The position numbers and the translations under genes were made by a program. From Pseudomonadota bacterium (lineage in GTDB: Bacteria; Bdellovibrionota; Bdellovibrionia; Bdellovibrionales; SG-bin7): a stretch of 64,000 nucleotides of DNA. Below the pieces are notes generated by a model, which was given only the letters and a program-made list of their open reading frames with translations, had not been told where the DNA came from and searched no databases. Location: contig JAWXAY010000075.1 in assembly GCA_034439715.1 (NCBI GenBank), positions 15,468 to 79,467 on the forward strand, written 5' to 3'. Below are positions 5,556-13,642 of the stretch, piece by piece. Each line of letters begins with the position of its first letter. Position 1 is the first letter of the stretch.

Positions 5556-6677
5556 TTACGAGACACCATTTAGAACTTCACGATACAGTTCTTGGTGGGA
5601 TTCCACCATTCTCTCTAAACGAAATAGATCATGAAAGCGTATTTCAGCGTTGGCGCTCATGCGCGCGCGCAGACTATCATTGCCCAAGATTGTGTTGAGC
5701 GCCATGGCGAGACTCACGTGATCTTTTGGCGGCACAGTGAGGCCCGTGACGTTTTGTACGTTAACCGATTTCACTCCCGACGGAATGTCCGTGGTCACCA
5801 ATGGGCAGCCGCAGGCTAGACCTTCTATGAGACACATGCCAAAGGCTTCACGCTCGTCAATCGAGGGGAGCACTACGACATCGGCCAAATGGTAAAATAC
5901 ACCCAAATCATGTCTCGGAAAATTTCTAAAAAAATGCACCTTATTTGTTAAACCCAAGCTGTGAGCCAGGGTCTGCAGCGCTTTTTGTTCGGGCCCATCG
6001 CCGACCAATAATAAAACGGCATCAACCCTTTTCATAGCCCGAATCAAATACGCCAAGCCCTTATACTCGACAAGGCGGCCTACATAAACAACAGTTTTTG
6101 TATTAAAATTGTTTTTGAGCTGATCAAACATCTGTTGGAGCGATGGCGTAAGTGCAAAACTTTTTTTGTTAATGCCAAACGGAATAACTCGACATTTATT
6201 TTTGAAATCTCTCAAAACCGGAGAGTTATCGACAAGTTCAAAACTCGAAGTAATGATGGCGCGCGCCTGTGCAAGTTGTTCGCGTAAAAGGGGGAGGTAA
6301 AGCCGATTGAGCCATGGGTAACTTAAAACATCGCAATGATAGGTAATGACATAAGGGACTTTAGTTTTTCTCAATGCCAATGTCGCGAGTGGATTTGGTA
6401 GGTGCACGTGTAATAAATCGGCATCTAAAGACTTAGCCCGCTTCATAAAAGAAAAAGAAATGGGAGTAGAGGCAATTTCAAAAGGGCGAGACATTTTGTA
6501 AACTGGTACACCGTTCACAAAGTGAATTTCATTGTGTGGTGTTGTACCAGTTACAAGACATTTTACGTTAAATTCACGTTTGTCGATACCCGTCGTAAGG
6601 TCATAAAGTACAGATTCCATACCGCCAGAATGTGGCGGAAAATACTTACCAACTTGAATTAATTTGGCGGGTGACAT
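5556..6677 (-). CDS. Glycosyltransferase family 4 (GT-B), last gene of the putative RiPP operon
   Basis: GKYFPPHSGGMES, VGRLVEYKG and EAFGMCLIEGLACG (ExFGxxxxE) motifs. Confidence 0.9.
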   Translation of the reverse strand: MSPAKLIQVGKYFPPHSGGMESVLYDLTTGIDKREFNVKCLVTGTTPHNEIHFVNGVPVYKMSRPFEIASTPISFSFMKRAKSLDADLLHVHLPNPLATLALRKTKVPYVITYHCDVLSYPWLNRLYLPLLREQLAQARAIITSSFELVDNSPVLRDFKNKCRVIPFGINKKSFALTPSLQQMFDQLKNNFNTKTVVYVGRLVEYKGLAYLIRAMKRVDAVLLLVGDGPEQKALQTLAHSLGLTNKVHFFRNFPRHDLGVFYHLADVVVLPSIDEREAFGMCLIEGLACGCPLVTTDIPSGVKSVNVQNVTGLTVPPKDHVSLAMALNTILGNDSLRARMSANAEIRFHDLFRLERMVESHQELYREVLNGVS

Positions 6678-6680
6678 AGT

Positions 6681-7490
6681 TTAAATAATAGAAACAACAT
6701 CCGCTCTTGTAAATGAATACTTTTCAGAACTAGTCTGAGCAAGAAATCCCGCCAGCCGTAGTTCGCGTTCAAAATGATCGAAGCTGGGGTAGAAGTGATA
6801 GTAAAGCAGGCCGGCATCAGTGTTATGATTTCCTAAAAATGAACTGACGGTATCGCCAGGAGACCAAATATTTTGACCACGCCATCTAAAGCGTAAAATT
6901 TGCGAGCCCCAGAAGAGTCTATCTCTAGGCGTTAACTGCCGAATATATGGCAAGCAAAACAAAACAGAATTTTGATTGCCCAATTGGTGTAGTTTTTTTA
7001 GGAACTCAACTCGCTTGGTTTGGGTAGGTATGTGGCCAATAATAGCTGGAGAAACAAAAAGAAAATCAAAATGGGCATTGCTTAAAGAAAACACATCGCC
7101 TTGCTTGAAAGTCACCCGACTTTTAATTCTGCTTGAGACCATTTGAGCGCGCATGATCATAGACTGACTGGAGTCGATCCCTAAAACCTTATAGCCCATT
7201 TTTTCAAGCGCAAAGGACTCTCGACCGGCACCACAGCCGACGACTAAAGCTGTGGGGCTGCCCTGAAAAAGCTTAAAGGCCGCGAAGGCAGCTTGCAGTT
7301 CCTCGGACTCTAAGCCAAGACGCACCAATTTTTCGTAATAATCAAGTTCTGTGGGAGTTGAGTAACGTTCGATCATTTTATTCATGAGTTTGTCGCTCGA
7401 CGAAAGCGCCGAAGAAAACGATGGGGAAAACAGTGCCTCAGCAATCTGCTTAAGTCTACGTGGGATCTTTTTAAAAGAACTGAGGGTCAT
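6681..7490 (-). CDS. Class I SAM-dependent methyltransferase
   Basis: LVVGCGAGR motif I, GIDSS motif II, GDV and FDF. Confidence 0.85.
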   Translation of the reverse strand: MTLSSFKKIPRRLKQIAEALFSPSFSSALSSSDKLMNKMIERYSTPTELDYYEKLVRLGLESEELQAAFAAFKLFQGSPTALVVGCGAGRESFALEKMGYKVLGIDSSQSMIMRAQMVSSRIKSRVTFKQGDVFSLSNAHFDFLFVSPAIIGHIPTQTKRVEFLKKLHQLGNQNSVLFCLPYIRQLTPRDRLFWGSQILRFRWRGQNIWSPGDTVSSFLGNHNTDAGLLYYHFYPSFDHFERELRLAGFLAQTSSEKYSFTRADVVSII

Positions 7491-7491
7491 G

Positions 7492-8310
7492 CTAATATCT
7501 TAGCAAAAAATTCCGGCCTTGTGTGCGAACTTTTTTAAAGGCGGAACCCAAAATTTTAAGGCTGATCGCTAATAAAACAAGACCAAAGGCGAAAAGCATC
7601 GCCCATTCGACAAAGTTAGGTGGCGATTCTGAATATAGGATCCCACGAGCGCGCGTGAGCACAAAGTAAAAGGGCGAAACGAGTGCCACTGACTTCTGTA
7701 GAATCTCAGGTAGCACAGAAGTTGGAAAATAGAGACCCGACAGCAAAGTTAAAAATGAAATTGCGAAGGTCAGAGCTCTTTCTCCCCGGCCAAACAGGAT
7801 AAGCACTGTAGCCGATAGTAGTCCTAGGCTCAAAAAAAACGGGAGTGAACAAAAAACAAAGGCCAAAAGTAATATAAGTTTTTGCAAACTGAGCTGAAAG
7901 CCAAAAAATAAAGCGGCCAATCCAACTAAAATCAAAAGCCGTACTGCATCCAAGGGCAGTTTTGCCAGTGTCCAAAACAATAAGGGGGTCTGAGTTCGTG
8001 TTGGCAGACTCATAAAGGTCTCAAGTGTCCCACTAGCCACAGCCTGACGAACAACATGAATGGTCCCTTCGATGAGAACGAGAGGTAAAGTGAGAATTAA
8101 CTCCCCGCTAAAAACAAAGTTAAAGTAATCGACTGTTTCTGTAGTTAAATGGTCCTTAAGAGCCGGGGCAAAGGCCTCAGAAGTAAACCAATACATGATT
8201 AGGCTCAATACCGAACCGACAAGTGCGCCTCCTATGGCCCATTTGGAGGGGTAGGAATCCTGGTATTCCATTGCGACAAATTTAGAGTAAATACTCTGCC
8301 ATTTTTTCAT
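7492..8310 (-). CDS. ABC-2 type exporter permease
   Basis: About six hydrophobic segments, GTLE and LLSGLYFP...LPE motifs; ATGA overlap with the upstream ATPase gene. Confidence 0.85.
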   Translation of the reverse strand: MKKWQSIYSKFVAMEYQDSYPSKWAIGGALVGSVLSLIMYWFTSEAFAPALKDHLTTETVDYFNFVFSGELILTLPLVLIEGTIHVVRQAVASGTLETFMSLPTRTQTPLLFWTLAKLPLDAVRLLILVGLAALFFGFQLSLQKLILLLAFVFCSLPFFLSLGLLSATVLILFGRGERALTFAISFLTLLSGLYFPTSVLPEILQKSVALVSPFYFVLTRARGILYSESPPNFVEWAMLFAFGLVLLAISLKILGSAFKKVRTQGRNFLLRY

Positions 8311-8942
8311 TGAAGTCGACCATTGGCCAGTCTATAGGTTTTAGACTGAAGCGACTGCCACTCTTGATCTAAGTGGTTAGTAAAAATCAATAATCGATTC
8401 TTGCTATTTTCTGATAGAATTTTTACTAAGCCTAGGCGAGTTTTCTTGTCGAGACTTCTTAACGGTTCATCAAGCAAAAGCACTTTACGGTCGCTAATTA
8501 GAGCCAATGTAACTCGTAAAAGTTGCTTCATGCCAGACGACATTTGATTAAACGGAGTTTTTAAAATTTTTGTGAAGTTGAAGTGTTGACTGAGTTGGTG
8601 CAATTTTTTTTCAAGACTCAAATCGTTCAGACCGTAGAATTCAGCTAGAAGCGAGAGATTTTCTTGCCCTGTTAGGCGTAAAAAAAATCCCCCATCGTTG
8701 ACGCCGACATAGGCTAATCGGTCCTTAATTTTTAAAAAATCATTTTTAGTGTCAAGATTATCAATTATGACTTGGCCTTCGGTAGGTAATAAGAGCCCCG
8801 CGAGTGTTTTTAAAAAAGTAGTCTTTCCACTGGCATTATCACCGCAAATTTCAATAGTCTCGCCCATTTGCACTTCAAAATTGATATCATTTAAAACATT
8901 TTTGGCGCCGTAAGAAAAGGTGAGGGCTCGCGTACAAATCAT
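8307..8942 (-). CDS. ABC transporter ATP-binding protein
   Basis: Walker A GDNASGKTT, signature MSSGMKQ, Walker B LLLDEP. Confidence 0.9.
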   Translation of the reverse strand: MICTRALTFSYGAKNVLNDINFEVQMGETIEICGDNASGKTTFLKTLAGLLLPTEGQVIIDNLDTKNDFLKIKDRLAYVGVNDGGFFLRLTGQENLSLLAEFYGLNDLSLEKKLHQLSQHFNFTKILKTPFNQMSSGMKQLLRVTLALISDRKVLLLDEPLRSLDKKTRLGLVKILSENSKNRLLIFTNHLDQEWQSLQSKTYRLANGRLQ

Positions 8943-9784
8943 TTAGTTAAACGGCGGAGGCCATATAAAAAAGCCTCAACGATAGTGTCGCGCATTAGCG
9001 CTTTGTAAAACATATAAAAGGCGTGAGGCTTTTTATGGAGTTGTTTACGAATTCTCTCAGGATGAAGAAAGCGTGCGGAGGTCTTGCGTAAAAACCAAGA
9101 GGCCAATGGCTTAAGGGGCTTTTCGCTTACTACACTGTGGCCATAGTACTTCTCGAGAAGAATTAAAGATACACCCACCGCATTTTTTAAGCGATAGGAC
9201 TTAGCTCGCAGAAATATTTTAGGCCAACTAATCGAAGCGCTTTCTTTAAGTAACAGAAGATTGAGATCATATAGCCACTGAATTTCGTCAAATAAATGTT
9301 GAAAGGCGCCGTGGCCGCAGAGATAAACAAAAAGATCTTCAGCACAAGGCTCGCGAAACCAAACGAGCCCCGGAATTTTTGTTTGTCGGGAGTCCTTAAT
9401 AAAGGAGTAGTCTATATCTCGGTCAACGAGAAGTCCTTTGTGAATTTCTACTGGAAAGTTATCAAATAAATAAACGGCCCGAAAAGCATTGCCCATCCAT
9501 TTTTTGCCATTAATAGGTTTGCCACCCAAATCCTTCAGAACTTGCATTGATTTTTCCCAGTTCTGGGGCTCTACAAAAAGGTCCAAATCAGTATAGTTAC
9601 GCTCGCTGGCATTTTCATAATAGCGAAATATCAGGGCCGGTCCCTTTAATATCCAAATAGGAATTTTACGAGCCATAAACTCTAGATCTAATCTTTTAAG
9701 GAGTTCTAAAAAATAAATATGGCGAACAAGGTGAGTTTTTTTTAATATCGTGGAGCCATTATTAGTGAGGTTCATCTCAGGCAT
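8939..9784 (-). CDS. Nucleotidyltransferase family protein (NTP_transf_5-like)
   Basis: ILKGP, ERNYTDLDLFV (DxD), VEIH and WLYDL motifs typical of the nucleotidyltransferases found beside PqqD genes. Confidence 0.8.
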   Translation of the reverse strand: MPEMNLTNNGSTILKKTHLVRHIYFLELLKRLDLEFMARKIPIWILKGPALIFRYYENASERNYTDLDLFVEPQNWEKSMQVLKDLGGKPINGKKWMGNAFRAVYLFDNFPVEIHKGLLVDRDIDYSFIKDSRQTKIPGLVWFREPCAEDLFVYLCGHGAFQHLFDEIQWLYDLNLLLLKESASISWPKIFLRAKSYRLKNAVGVSLILLEKYYGHSVVSEKPLKPLASWFLRKTSARFLHPERIRKQLHKKPHAFYMFYKALMRDTIVEAFLYGLRRLTK

Positions 9785-9815: not shown

Positions 9816-10253
9816 TCAAAGATTTGACTTGAGCCAAAAGAAAGCTCTGCTTAGGAGAAACAGTACTATCAAGGAGATCCATCTTTTTAGTCGTGTTAAA
9901 AAACTTTGATTTGAAAGATGCCCCATCGTTGAAAGCCGGGCCAAAAGCGACTTCAAAGGCTGTCCCCTTTGACCCCAAACATAGGATTTATGTTTTCGTT
10001 TGAGCCCTTGGACCATTCCCCACATTTGATTTTGATTAAAGGGCTCGAGGTTTGTTGAAAAATCGCCTTTCAAAAATAGACCATTTTTTAGGGTAACGAT
10101 TCGGTGTGATATCCATTGTTGTTCATCTTTTACGATGACGATGTCGCCCGTTTCGACTGTGGCTTTCTCAAAAGAGACTAAGAGTTCATCGCCTTCTTGA
10201 AAAAAAGGCCACATGCTGTAGCCAGAAAACGGCAGGCGGGCCAGGGCAGACAC
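9816..10253 (-). CDS. S24/S26-family (signal peptidase-like) peptidase, putative leader peptidase
   Basis: SGYSMWP (catalytic Ser), GD, SHRIV (His general base) and LKGD; GTG start directly abuts the precursor stop codon. Confidence 0.8.
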   Translation of the reverse strand: MSALARLPFSGYSMWPFFQEGDELLVSFEKATVETGDIVIVKDEQQWISHRIVTLKNGLFLKGDFSTNLEPFNQNQMWGMVQGLKRKHKSYVWGQRGQPLKSLLARLSTMGHLSNQSFLTRLKRWISLIVLFLLSRAFFWLKSNL

Positions 10254-10442
10254 TTAAGAGTGTAATTTCAAGGAATTGCAGCTATCGGCTACCGCAGCCT
10301 TACGTCCTCCGGCCATTGACATTCCATTGCACCCGGCTCCATAAATCATTAGAGATTCAGTAGTTACTTTGGGCGAGCTGTAAGGTTTTTTTTCTGTTTT
10401 CTTGTTCTCTGTTTTGGTCTCTGGTTTTTTTGAATTTTTCAT
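10254..10442 (-). CDS. Putative RiPP precursor peptide (62 aa)
   Basis: AGGAG SD; Lys/Glu-rich leader with KKPYSSPKV (YxxP RRE-binding type motif); small-residue core with Cys38 and Cys55 and C-terminal Ser; lies between the radical SAM and peptidase genes. Confidence 0.8.
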   Translation of the reverse strand: MKNSKKPETKTENKKTEKKPYSSPKVTTESLMIYGAGCNGMSMAGGRKAAVADSCNSLKLHS

Positions 10443-10459
10443 TTTTCTCTCCTGATTTT

Positions 10460-11512
10460 CTAGTTTATTTTTTGGGCAAATTGATGAGCTTCATATTTTA
10501 TCTTAGCAAGCATCTGTTGAAATGGAGTTACTTTTAGTGGGTCGCCATGTTCGTGTTGAGCTGCGGCTGGGCAGTGATCGCAAAAGGACATATGTTTACC
10601 CTCTACACCCTTCATTTGGCCAAACTTAAATTCTCGCCATTTTGAGGCTAGTTTGCTCTCCCAAATTTCTGAAAAGTTTTGCTTGGTTAAATCTCCGAGC
10701 GGCTCTCTAACCTCAATGCAAGTAAGTAGTTCGCCATAAGCTGTAACAGCACATTTACCTTTAGCCGCATTGCAAAGATAGTCGGATTTAGTTTCGGTGG
10801 AGGGTTGAGGTGCTGAATAGGGCCAACGTGTAATATGCTTGATGTAAAATTCCCGAAGCTGTTCGGGCGTAGCGCGCAAAGATGTTGGTGATAGCTCTCC
10901 ATCAAATTTAGGCGTAATAAAAGCATCGTGCCTAACAGCGGCGTTTCGGCTAATTCCCCATTCAGCCATTTCAAAATAGGACTCAATGTTTGCTTGGGTT
11001 AATAGACAATTAATATGAATATTTATTTTTTGAGCGACGCAGATTTCAATCGCCTTTTTGGTTTTCTCGCAAGACCCATAAACTCGAGTCATTTTATCAT
11101 GGATGGCAGGATCTAGGCTATACAAGCTAAAGGCGATGTCGGCCATGCCTACTTCTTTTAAGCGCCTTCCTGTTTTTTCATTTATCAATAGTCCATTAGT
11201 GATCATAGAAAGAGAAAATCCCAGGCGATGGGCTTCGTCAGCAATGTCCCAAAAAAGTGGGTTCAACATGGCTTCACCGCCCATGAGGATTAAGTAAAGA
11301 GTTCCCGCTTCGCGCAGTTGCTTTAAAATATGTTTCCACTGGTCTAAGTTTAGAACTCGAGAGGCAGTATCTTTGTATTCAGGAATATAACAGTGCGAAC
11401 AGCGCTCATTACAGCGATTCGTTAGTTCGAGCGAAGCCTGAATAGGTCGAAAGGCCTGGATACTGCGGTTCTGCCATTTGTCAAAAACCGAAACACCTCG
11501 TTCAACGGACAA
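10460..11512 (-). CDS. Radical SAM enzyme with SPASM/twitch-type C-terminal domain, putative peptide maturase
   Basis: CNERCSHC (CxxxCxxC), GGE and TNG motifs; C-terminal Cys247, 254, 265, 311 and 314. Confidence 0.92.
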   Translation of the reverse strand: MSVERGVSVFDKWQNRSIQAFRPIQASLELTNRCNERCSHCYIPEYKDTASRVLNLDQWKHILKQLREAGTLYLILMGGEAMLNPLFWDIADEAHRLGFSLSMITNGLLINEKTGRRLKEVGMADIAFSLYSLDPAIHDKMTRVYGSCEKTKKAIEICVAQKINIHINCLLTQANIESYFEMAEWGISRNAAVRHDAFITPKFDGELSPTSLRATPEQLREFYIKHITRWPYSAPQPSTETKSDYLCNAAKGKCAVTAYGELLTCIEVREPLGDLTKQNFSEIWESKLASKWREFKFGQMKGVEGKHMSFCDHCPAAAQHEHGDPLKVTPFQQMLAKIKYEAHQFAQKIN

Positions 11513-11777
11513 GAAGCATTCCCTTCTCCCTCATTTCGCCAATGAGGGTAATTGTGTCGGCGGTCGCTTGTTCAGTCGGGACATCGAACTCATTACAAAG
11601 ACTAGTCACAACAGCTCGTACACTCGTTTCTCCATCGAGCATTCTCCAAATAAAAGTGGCTGTTTCATTGAGTTCGTGGACCGCTGATTTTTGAGGAGTA
11701 AGAACTAACGCTTTGCCTTCCATTTCTTGCCAGGGAGTTAGAGTTTCCTTTTTAAAAACTTGATCAATCGTTTCCAT
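11502..11777 (-). CDS. PqqD-family RiPP recognition element (stand-alone RRE)
   Basis: About 90 aa with the LNETATFIWRMLDG...LCNEFDV...D...EMREKGML pattern; AGGAG SD before ATG 11777. Confidence 0.9.
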   Translation of the reverse strand: METIDQVFKKETLTPWQEMEGKALVLTPQKSAVHELNETATFIWRMLDGETSVRAVVTSLCNEFDVPTEQATADTITLIGEMREKGMLLVR

Positions 11778-12696
11778 CAACAACTCCTAAAAATGGGGTA
11801 TTTAAATTGAGTTTCAAATTCCAGCTTGGAACCGTCGCTAAAAACCGCTCTGTAAGTTGGGTTAACTTCTGAACTTCTTGGTGGCTGACATGAGTCCAGT
11901 TGGGATACATTAGCGACATAAAAAATCTTCTCATAGCGGCTACGCCAGACAAGCGTGTTTTTTCTAAATCTCCCGCCTGTTCTAAAAAATAAAAACCATT
12001 TATTGGAAATTTTTTACCAGCTCGCCCTTTAAATTTAGGATTCTGTCCTAGTATCGGAGTTTCAGCAAACGCTGTGCTATTTTCAATGGTAATCAAGATC
12101 ATATCGTCACCAAGTATCAGGCGATCTTTAATGCGCGAAACCGTTGTCGTTTTGCCCACGCCAGAGGGGCCGATAAACATATGTGCCCGATCGCCCTGAC
12201 CGACAAAACACGAACTATGCATAACGATACAATCTTTTCTTAACAAAAACTTTGGCATTAACCAGCGAAGCGCATTATAAAATCCGTCATCTAAATTTGG
12301 CCGTACATAGACGCTGATTAGCTTCTCATTTTTTGCTATTCCCATAAAGTCACGCTGTATGGCTACTTCGCAATTACTATGTCTTGAAATTTCTAAGTCC
12401 GAAATTGGGTCCTCATTCCAATGGCTAAGTTCACTTTCGCTCACACCAAAGGGACTCTGCCAAGAAACACAAAAATCTAACGGTTCTGATGATGAATGAT
12501 TTGTCGTCTCTAAAACGTTGTAAGAATTTAGGATTCTTTCAACCCAATTCTTCATTTCAATATTGTCGTAAGAAAAACCGACGTTGAGACCGTGGATCAA
12601 AAACTGTGCAGAAAATTCATTTTTAGATTTAAGCTCTAACGCTCTCGGAATCAGTGACCTTTTTTTATTTCGAGAATCAATCTGTACGTCATTCAT
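11764..12696 (-). CDS. HprK-related P-loop kinase
   Basis: MHSS, Walker A GPSGVGKTT and LGDD, the His / P-loop / DD arrangement of HprK-like kinases. Confidence 0.8.
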   Translation of the reverse strand: MNDVQIDSRNKKRSLIPRALELKSKNEFSAQFLIHGLNVGFSYDNIEMKNWVERILNSYNVLETTNHSSSEPLDFCVSWQSPFGVSESELSHWNEDPISDLEISRHSNCEVAIQRDFMGIAKNEKLISVYVRPNLDDGFYNALRWLMPKFLLRKDCIVMHSSCFVGQGDRAHMFIGPSGVGKTTTVSRIKDRLILGDDMILITIENSTAFAETPILGQNPKFKGRAGKKFPINGFYFLEQAGDLEKTRLSGVAAMRRFFMSLMYPNWTHVSHQEVQKLTQLTERFLATVPSWNLKLNLNTPFLGVVDGND

Positions 12697-12795: not shown

Positions 12796-13359
12796 TCATT
12801 TACTGCCACCCAGAAGGCCTTCTTTTAACTCGGGGTTTGGCGGTTCTTTTCCAATGAAAACTGACATGATGGTCTTTGGAAAATGAGGGTCAAAAATAGC
12901 ACCCTGATCCTTGTTTTTTACAGTGACTTGCAGATGATCCGAAAAGACGCTAAATACCATGCGATCGCCTGACTGCATATCAGTCATCATGGTCAAAAAT
13001 CTTTTTATAAGGGGCTTTTGCTCTTCGCATAGTGCACCACAATTATTTTTGAAGGCAACTTCCCAACCTTCAGTTACTTTGGATTTTGATACTTCTCTCA
13101 AGAAGTGAAGGACTACTTTTTTTGGACTGGTGCTCTCAATAATCTCATTCGATAATTTCGTTTTTTTTTCAATATAAAGGCCAGCCACATAAACTTTTAT
13201 CGGGACAAATAAAATCCGAGTGAGTCGAGTGCCCAGGCCATTTAATACGAGTTCTTTTTCGTCAAGAATTTCCTTATCAACAAATTCGACATCGTAAATT
13301 TTCGCTGCCTGAGCTGTGGTTGCAAGAAAAACCAATATGATTAAATTCTTAATGATCAT
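12796..13359 (-). CDS. Chalcone isomerase-like periplasmic protein
   Basis: Signal peptide; LVLNGLGTR, VYVAGLY and PPNPELKEGLLG motifs. Confidence 0.8.
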   Translation of the reverse strand: MIIKNLIILVFLATTAQAAKIYDVEFVDKEILDEKELVLNGLGTRLTRILFVPIKVYVAGLYIEKKTKLSNEIIESTSPKKVVLHFLREVSKSKVTEGWEVAFKNNCGALCEEQKPLIKRFLTMMTDMQSGDRMVFSVFSDHLQVTVKNKDQGAIFDPHFPKTIMSVFIGKEPPNPELKEGLLGGSK

Positions 13360-13438: not shown

Positions 13439-13642
13439 TTAAATGCAGGGGATATGCGGGATATCTGGTAGATCCGGAAGATCTGGAATTTTTGGCAATT
13501 CAATGCCGATATCTGGCAATTTGACATCGGGAAGTTCAATTTTGATATCAGGAATTGGACAATCACCTTCATGACTGTCTGCGAATGCGCTGATGCCAGT
13601 TAATAATGCAGCCACAAAAGAAATAGCTAGAATTTTCCTCAT
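13439..13642 (-). CDS. Small secreted Pro/Asp-periodic protein (67 aa)
   Basis: AGGAGG SD; signal peptide ending AFA; repeated (I/L)PD units flanked by two Cys; has its own terminator. Confidence 0.75.
   Translation of the reverse strand: MRKILAISFVAALLTGISAFADSHEGDCPIPDIKIELPDVKLPDIGIELPKIPDLPDLPDIPHIPCI

Follow-up and report, generated by a model that had tools for sequence, protein, structure and literature searches.

The 62-residue peptide encoded at positions 10254..10442 (minus strand) of the window, the whole stretch of 64,000 nucleotides that was analysed, is on balance probably the precursor of a RiPP from a variant of the LPP/paeninodin phospho-peptide pathway that uses a radical SAM (rSAM) enzyme, with thioether-linked cysteines, a phospho-capped Ser62 and a leader cut between Ala36 and Gly37. 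In the cassette the rSAM enzyme stands in place of the cyclase, and the precursor is a member of neither the lasso nor the LPP families. The original prediction had singled out a lasso-like leader and a non-lasso core with two Cys-Asn motifs; it overlooked Lys48, the terminal Ser/Thr, the kinase/S26/nucleotidyltransferase context and the link to giant C25 proteins.

The precursor gene, its cassette and its family

The open reading frame at 10254..10442 is a real precursor gene. It runs from an ATG at 10442 to a stop codon at 10256-10254 that directly abuts the GTG start of the S26 peptidase gene, and a Shine-Dalgarno-like AGGAG (10449..10453, minus strand) lies 6 nt 5' of the ATG. The plus strand across the frame is closed by stops. 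The peptide sequence had been predicted correctly letter for letter, including the numbering of Y21, P24, C38 and C55 and the contexts G-C38-N-G and S-C55-N-S. A chance or decayed intergenic frame has a negligible probability: a homolog search with the single sequence matched only the peptide itself (one candidate), but profile searches recover a family, a ribosome-binding site is present, and a comparison of 31 aligned codons with eight homologs (248 pairs) gave 94 synonymous changes versus 68 identical codons, with 86 residue-changing differences. The peptide matches no family in Pfam and NCBIfam at E≤0.01. Promoter and terminator scans gave counts at about the level of shuffled sequence (promoters 11 versus 16.5; terminators 12 versus 9.7). 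Upstream of the cassette, a 67-residue open reading frame (window 13439-13642, minus strand) has a signal-like start, two cysteines and repeated P-D/K-I/L-P units.

Three genes precede the precursor in a compact series of minus-strand genes, the first of which encodes an HprK/PEPCK-like kinase of 310 residues (11764..12696; His160, Lys182, Asp197-Asp198). The kinase is followed by a stand-alone PqqD/RRE protein of 93 residues (11502..11783; PF05402, E 1e-18) and an rSAM/SPASM enzyme of 350 residues (10460..11512) with a CxxxCxxC motif at residues 34-41. Beyond the precursor, also on the minus strand, lie genes for an S24/S26 leader peptidase resembling archaeal signal peptidase I (145 residues, 9816..10253; Ser13/His50/Asp64), which matches TIGR02228 with an E of 6.5e-7, under the model's cut-off; an NTP_transf_5 nucleotidyltransferase-fold enzyme (281 residues, 8939..9784; PF14907, E 5e-29; Asp66-x-Asp68); and the ATPase (8307-8942) and permease (7492-8310) of an ABC-2 exporter, both kept in near relatives. 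A SAM methyltransferase (6681-7490) and a GT4 glycosyltransferase (5556-6677), identified by domain matches, are accessory minus-strand genes. The key residues are well conserved among homologs: His160 and Lys182 of the kinase in 47/47 and Asp197 in 41/47, the peptidase triad in 20/20, Asp66 and Asp68 of the nucleotidyltransferase in 23/23, and the rSAM CxxxCxxC motif in 88/90.

Among 20 loci chosen by precursor match, the kinase, RRE, rSAM and nucleotidyltransferase genes each lie no more than 8 kb from the precursor in 19, and the S26 gene in 17. The order of the genes varies freely from locus to locus, and the cassette flanks in the scanned loci often carry glycosyltransferase, Wzc-like and sugar-nucleotide genes. 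Against the NCBIfam models of rSAM cassettes (SynChlorMet, GeoRSP, ACGX, HPr-rel-A), the cassette proteins score below the curated cut-offs (bits versus cut-off: TIGR04340, 76.9/400; TIGR04303, 73/400; TIGR04248, 37.4/100; TIGR04353, 20.4/35), and the precursor matches none. Fused or extended frames were also observed, namely a Pfam-confirmed rSAM-S26 fusion (L164:9360-10835), an extended kinase frame that may take in the S26 peptidase (L163:8189-9448), an S26-methyltransferase fusion (L158:4498-5727) and a methyltransferase and GT4 in a single open frame (L014:11203-13137). A chalcone-isomerase-like gene 5' of the kinase (window 12796-13359, minus strand) is found in 3/3 family relatives as well (L013-L015); none was seen in the more distant cassette loci examined.

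The proposal that the peptide is a RiPP precursor of its own family is supported, and profile searches recover it at three levels. With a profile from seven homologs, 29 of 384 genomes of the order gave a match at E≤0.01, although one match, at E 0.007, is doubtful; a profile from 38 homologs recognised it in 48 of 401 genomes across the phylum; and a profile search of 1.84 billion representatives gave 73 matches, from which two long proteins were removed to leave 71 short ones. A search with the rSAM enzyme only matched 8 of 61 genomes, this genome included; a homologous peptide is present in all seven rSAM-positive relatives, in one (G001) on a different contig. A scan of genome contigs with a single rSAM query gave four loci only. 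The ESM Atlas search returned unnamed clusters at 0.88, which serve as a lead only. In each of three genomes (G317, G463, G529), two precursor copies that differ from one another lie on separate contigs.

Among the 71 representatives, which include the window peptide, the leader, both cysteines and the terminal residue are all conserved. The leader motif, Y21-x-x-P24-x-V26 in the window peptide (10365..10382, minus strand), recurs as YxxPx[ILV] in 62/71; its Pro is invariant, and Glu29 is kept in 67/71. The first cysteine motif, C38-N39-G40 (10323..10331, minus strand), reads C-N-G in 62/71 (by position, Cys 71/71, Asn 63/71, Gly 69/71), and exactly two cysteines follow the leader motif in 69/71. 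Between them lies G45-G46-R47-K48 (10299..10310, minus strand), whose Lys, in an x[RKFH]K context, is present in 70/71; the full motif reads GGRK in 38/71 and GGKK in 5/71. The peptide ends with L60-x-S62 (10257..10265, minus strand), and the C-terminal residue is Ser in 47/71 or Thr in 21/71, that is, Ser/Thr in 68/71. Terminal Ser occurs in 49/49 genome-derived precursors, which were found with a search pattern that demanded a terminal Ser or Thr.

The twin Cys-Asn motifs, thought at first to define the family, do not. The second cysteine, C55 (10278..10280, minus strand), is conserved, but the Asn after it occurs in only 16/71 representatives and 20/49 genome-derived precursors, so twin Cys-Asn is a trait of the window copy and some of its kin. 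The residue before the second Cys is mostly Phe or Pro and not small (29/47 Ser-ending members). The window peptide belongs to a subtype with a Tyr-to-Cys distance of 17 (34/71), nearly all members of which end in C-x6-S. Poly-Gly linkers of variable length connect the leader to the first Cys in several other precursors (P0031, P0045, P0059, P0060, P0062, P0069 and L176). More distant rSAM relatives (25-30% identity) adjoin sister precursors with the same leader, Cys-containing cores and mostly a terminal Ser. These sister families (L066-L125) have cores of the types ACGKC.., ACGKS.., ACGKN.., ACQK.. and TACK.., mostly with a Lys one or two residues past the first Cys.

That the peptide is not a lasso precursor, as had been proposed, is upheld by the genome and by the family. 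In this genome, which is 95.7% complete, neither PF00733 (lasso cyclase) nor PF13471 (B2 peptidase) has a match; in the controls the two models matched in 11/14 and 2/14, respectively. Asp or Glu occurs at core positions 7-9 in only 4/71 representatives, and Thr, Ile or Val at position -2 in 7/71, in either register. Of the two lasso rules invoked originally, the absence of a ring Asp/Glu held, and the need for a Thr at -2 proved not to be absolute, Ile being described at this position in BsfA (PMC10368454); the verdict is independent of that residue. It is highly improbable that the peptide is an atypical, class I-like lasso precursor with a cyclase encoded elsewhere: the YxxPxV leader, an RRE resembling lasso B1 proteins, and a Tyr at -17, which in the register described for BsfA (PMC10368454) would start the core with Cys38 as residue 1, would favour it, but the missing PF00733 and PF13471 matches and the two residue counts argue against it.

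Proposed maturation of the peptide

The first step would be recognition of the YxxPxV leader by the stand-alone RRE, as suggested by family precedent and by a weakly modelled contact. The closest solved relatives of the RRE are TbiB1 and other lasso-type RREs. Cofolding of the RRE with the precursor scored 0.55, versus 0.00 for the best of three controls, with at least 96% contact agreement between runs and a partner pLDDT of at least 53; by the tool's own rating, this is weak support, for a complex like those already solved. The tool's mark is reached by 116/157 solved and 2/215 mismatched pairs, and 18 of the solved pairs and both mismatches lie at ≤0.60. Of the RRE-leader interaction proposed originally, the lasso-type YxxPx[IV] leader is supported (YxxPx[ILV] in 62/71) and the predicted docking is weakly modelled.

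The S26 peptidase, with the RRE as its guide, would later remove the leader. In the LPP system the SpI-like peptidase LppS is reported to cut after F-E-T, 16 residues from the YxxP Tyr, and to need the RRE (PMC13381572). Residues Y34-G35-A36 (10335..10343, minus strand) fall in this register, with the Tyr at -16, and form the predicted -3 to -1 positions of the S26 site. Positions -3 to -1 are hydrophobic and then small in 34/34 members with a Tyr-to-Cys distance of 17. The LPP register and this pattern together point to a cut at Ala36|Gly37 and a 26-residue core, G37-S62 (10257..10334, minus strand), with an unmodified monoisotopic mass of 2564.17. The register fits 34/71 representatives only and the remainder have longer linkers; because poly-Gly linkers vary in length, it cannot apply to the precursors that carry them.

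Before cleavage, the rSAM/SPASM enzyme would join the sulfurs of Cys38 and Cys55 to backbone or side-chain carbons. The set of features by which sacti- and ranthipeptides are recognised, an RRE-associated rSAM/SPASM enzyme, an intact CxxxCxxC motif and conserved core cysteines, was found. The best sequence match of the rSAM profile in the PDB is the sactisynthase SkfB (E 3e-28). Compared with StsB, three of six active-site-proximal residues, at positions placed by motif, are equal (YMISIE versus YTISKL; Y, I and S), and the others are M, I and E in place of T, K and L. In a fold search SuiB, PqqE, MoaA, SkfB, anSME and CteB all scored between E 1e-13 and 1e-11; these near-equal scores do not separate thioether from C-C enzymes.

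The most likely arrangement, as read from the spacing of residues, would be two separate local rings, one from Cys38 to G45-G46-R47-K48 and the other from Cys55 to the C-terminal tail. The relevant spacings are nearly fixed, the first Cys lying 9 residues from the Lys in 53/69 and the second Cys 5 or 7 residues from the end in 46/47 Ser-ending members, while the spacing between the two cysteines varies (14 to 21, with a single outlier of 39). Such an unnested two-ring topology has precedent in the accounts of GggB/QmpB. An NxxcB-type Cys-Asn link was considered and rejected, as the Asn comes directly after the Cys and is not conserved after the second one.

The SPASM region of the window rSAM enzyme (window 10460-10780, minus strand) has only five cysteines (247, 254, 265, 311 and 314). 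In its clade the second auxiliary cluster is missing its CxxC and its last Cys; among complete enzymes, none of the 18 closest (38-100% identity) has the CxxC. This loss is not a family rule, as the CxxC is retained in further carriers of the precursor subtype. Carriers with the same family of precursors also include some whose rSAM enzyme has seven cysteines and is only about 25% identical to that of the window, so that one precursor family is served by rSAM enzymes of two distinct types. Altered radical chemistry may follow from the reduced SPASM domain in the window clade.

The conservation of both cysteines leaves thioethers and a disulfide, the two readings of the original prediction, as live options. 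In a less likely alternative, Cys38 and Cys55 would form a disulfide after export and the rSAM enzyme would act at Lys48/Arg47, Gly45-Gly46 or the terminal residues, the rest of the pathway being the same; its chemistry at Lys48/Arg47 or Gly45-Gly46 would then be a C-C or C-N link or an epimerisation. Two cysteines in an exported peptide can simply pair, and the near-invariance of both the pair (69/71) and the Lys (70/71), the reduced SPASM cysteine set, the position of SuiB (a Lys cross-linker) and PqqE at the top of the fold search, and the Lys kept one or two residues past the first Cys in the sister precursors are all in keeping with such a scheme. However, the core has no conserved aromatic partner, SkfB is the best sequence match, and sister precursors have two or three cysteines and were scored as sacti/ranthipeptide-like in a published survey (PMC10288494). 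Thioether formation by the rSAM enzyme remains the preferred reading.

The HprK-like kinase would then phosphorylate, or polyphosphorylate, the side chain of Ser62. The His-Lys-Asp-Asp motif described for lasso kinases (PMC10368454) and the terminal Ser/Thr of the paeninodin-type module are both present. PadeK, ThcoK and PsmK are reported to phosphorylate a C-terminal Ser, and PsmN to be required for the addition of hexoses to the phospho-Ser (PMC6993621, PMC9266682). Phosphorylation and later capping of Ser62 are inferred by precedent of these related kinases. Sequence comparison of the kinase with the PDB gave mainly PEPCK and P-loop matches.

Other kinases of this kind act elsewhere: LppK is described as phosphorylating core Ser3 (PMC13381572), and so is BsfK, which also accepts Thr (PMC10368454). 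It is quite unlikely, though, that the kinase here targets an internal Ser/Thr near the core start (Ser3-like; here Ser42) or the terminal carboxylate, with the terminal Ser/Thr kept for another reason. The LPP-like peptidase and gene set, the use of Ser3 in the LPP and Bsf systems and a Ser/Thr at positions +3 to +5 from the first Cys in 61/71 would fit an internal target. On the other side, core position 3 is Asn in 63/71 and Ser/Thr in only 4/71, 10/71 have no Ser/Thr at +3 to +5, and 68/71 end in Ser/Thr, which makes the terminal hydroxyl the most conserved one. Position 3 being Asn and the terminus being Ser/Thr, Ser62 is the best candidate for phosphorylation.

In the last step of the pathway proposed here, a nucleotide or sugar would be placed on the phosphate as a cap by the nucleotidyltransferase-fold enzyme, and the product would reach the cell envelope through the ABC-2 pump. 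The best fold match of the nucleotidyltransferase model (pLDDT 86) is ANT(2'')-Ia, which is also reported as the template or fold of PsmN (PMC6993621, PMC9266682); a sequence search of the PDB gave nothing significant (best E 0.11). A LicD/fukutin-like enzyme was considered and dropped, none being among the listed fold matches. LppN is described as inactive in its own study (PMC13381572).

Association with giant C25 proteins

Carriers of the precursor usually also encode a giant protein with a Peptidase_C25 domain. Of 17 very long open reading frames beside the cassette, 14 contain Peptidase_C25 or its propeptide domain, and the other three are cut by the locus edge. Some C25 protein is found in 124 of the 401 genomes of the phylum. 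Giants were defined as C25 matches in frames of at least 1,400 residues, among the matches listed and with 72 weaker C25 matches left out; they occur in 41 genomes, 38 of which carry the precursor, 28 within 15 kb. Thus, among the matches listed, 38/48 carriers have a giant versus 3/353 non-carriers, counts that are not independent, since carrier genomes include kin. The split also holds within families (carriers versus others among the matches listed: 19/26 versus 0/74, 4/4 versus 2/30, 5/5 versus 0/52, 3/3 versus 1/24 and 1/3 versus 0/6). Ten of the 48 carriers have no giant among the matches listed, and one of these has C25 fragments at contig ends. In one of the three giant-only genomes the rSAM gene lies at a contig edge, which is not so in the other two.

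The giants range from 1,400 to 3,550 residues. The single C25 protein of this genome (G000:C33:29695-40344, L177), a frame of 3,549 residues, is unlinked to the cassette, and its neighbours are unrelated to the RiPP. Its start resembles a signal peptide, its PorU-like domain is C-terminal, and its tail consists of a Cys, a transmembrane segment and a basic stretch, an arrangement similar to C-terminal sorting signals. In the C25 domain of the giants, His and Cys are invariant (13/13), and the closest solved relative is PorU (E 7e-38, versus 3e-23 for RgpB). Three of four giants score 180-213 bits with NF033707, the PorU model, whose cut-off is 420 bits; the fourth, which is truncated, has no match. 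Neither the PorU Arg nor the RgpB/gingipain S1 Asp was matched in the giant C25 profile alignment, in which the Arg column is variable. With the S1 Asp unmatched, an Arg/Lys specificity of the giants for the GG[RK]K motif found no support.

Several further observations concern individual loci. In one (L161:8018-16201) the precursor lies directly beside a giant C25 gene and none of the five enzymes is found within 8 kb. A C25 protein also adjoins a sister-precursor cassette (L068). Seven of seven giants (L157, L160, L164, L165, L167, L170 and G000:C33) start with A-C-(G/A) after the putative signal peptide. The second residue of the mature protein would then be a Cys, which is also the case in the peptide core as predicted (x-C-N-G). 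This Cys may be no more than one half of a disulfide within the protein, its partner lying about 55 residues further on.

The usual co-inheritance of the precursor with a giant C25 surface protease hints at a role at the cell surface, where the exported product would act with the PorU-like giant; this association is genomic. The peptide could be a substrate, an inhibitor or an acceptor of the giant C25 protein. PorU is described as cleaving its cargo and attaching it to A-LPS (PMC5445135). By analogy, it is conceivable, if unlikely, that the RiPP does not diffuse away but serves as an anchor at the surface, where the peptide, stapled by the rSAM enzyme, would link a giant adhesin to polysaccharide. 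The kinase would build a Ser-polyphosphate, which the nucleotidyltransferase-fold enzyme would treat as an NTP and use to transfer the peptidyl-phosphate to a surface glycan, and the PorU-like C25 protein would cleave its own passenger of 1,000-3,000 residues and join it to the free N-terminus or Lys48 of the peptide. The support is genomic: the distribution of the giants (38/48, 28 of them within 15 kb, versus 3/353), its recurrence in four well-sampled families, and the locus L161 with a precursor and a giant without the enzymes. The unmatched PorU Arg and the ten carriers with no giant among the matches listed argue against it. Such an anchor, if real, would parallel PorU/A-LPS sorting in a setting other than the type IX system.

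Comparison with known systems

PorU itself, a C25 protease and the sortase of the type IX system, shares the His/Cys dyad with the giants, which have the Cys, transmembrane and basic tail.

Among characterised rSAM enzymes, SkfB, StsB, GggB/QmpB and NxxcB share with the window enzyme an rSAM domain with a SPASM/twitch domain and act on Cys-containing precursors. The window enzyme differs in its identity to the solved ones, which is about 20% or less, and its precursor has no CxC hairpin; in NxxC the Asn stands before the Cys, whereas here it directly follows. We know of no kinase or nucleotidyltransferase in these systems.

The closest published precursors are the group 16 peptides of Precord et al. 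2023 (PMC10288494), listed there as 'Other Uncharacterized' (ACGKC...KKFS) and predicted to be sacti/ranthipeptides. They share the KKKxYxKPx[LMV]x[TS]E leader, a Cys-containing core, a terminal Ser and an RRE-associated rSAM enzyme, and they adjoin the 25-30% identical rSAM relatives found here, several with a kinase. Group 16, as given in that source, has three cysteines, C-G-K and a full SPASM domain with 7-8 cysteines, in contrast to the two cysteines, C-N-G and GG[RK]K of the window family. The CNG/GGRK family was not found in the Precord 2023 table in the form available (GGRK, 0 matches; none of 26 CNG matches; PMC10288494).

The paeninodin/pseudomycoidin systems (PadeK, ThcoK, PsmK, PsmN) share the HprK-like kinase, an ANT(2'')-like nucleotidyltransferase, a C-terminal Ser and a lasso-type RRE. 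The window family differs in being without cyclase, B2 peptidase and ring Asp/Glu, in having an rSAM enzyme and an S26 peptidase, and in that 21/71 members end in Thr.

The LPP systems of Bacillota (lppA-K-B-S-D-N; Popov et al. 2026, PMC13381572) are, in the text accessible to us, similar in gene content: a stand-alone RRE, a kinase of the HprK-like type, a peptidase resembling SpI, an NTP transferase, an exporter, no cyclase and a setting of polysaccharide genes, together with a YxxPxV leader with a hydrophobic -3 residue. The LPP leader consensus, YxxPxVLxHQxIxFETxxS, matches the window family in register, but the phospho-Ser3 position is occupied by Asn. An rSAM enzyme has 0 mentions in the same text (PMC13381572), whereas the cassette described here has an rSAM/SPASM enzyme in 19/20 loci; the LPP core is described as linear and without a cyclising enzyme, and cyclisation by the rSAM enzyme in the window cassette would be a further difference. 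LPPs are phosphorylated at core Ser3 and have a variable C-terminus, while the window family has Asn at position 3, a terminal Ser/Thr and two cysteines; their exporter is MsbA-like (PMC13381572), in place of the ABC-2 exporter of the window, where the family also has a giant C25 partner.

The pathway proposed here would thus unite rSAM cross-linking with kinase/nucleotidyltransferase capping of a terminal Ser/Thr, which were not found together in the papers searched. A full-text literature search, covering titles and the starts of abstracts and few subscription papers, gave no characterised product and no combination of an rSAM enzyme with a kinase and nucleotidyltransferase. The LPP study as accessible (PMC13381572) states that what LPPs and paeninodin-type peptides finally yield, and what role they play, is unknown. 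The substrate of the window family is short and easily expressed, ends in a fixed Ser/Thr, has a cut site that can be predicted and comes with a candidate partner protein; this makes these questions of product and role testable, and the NTP_transf_5 step can be tested directly through it as well.
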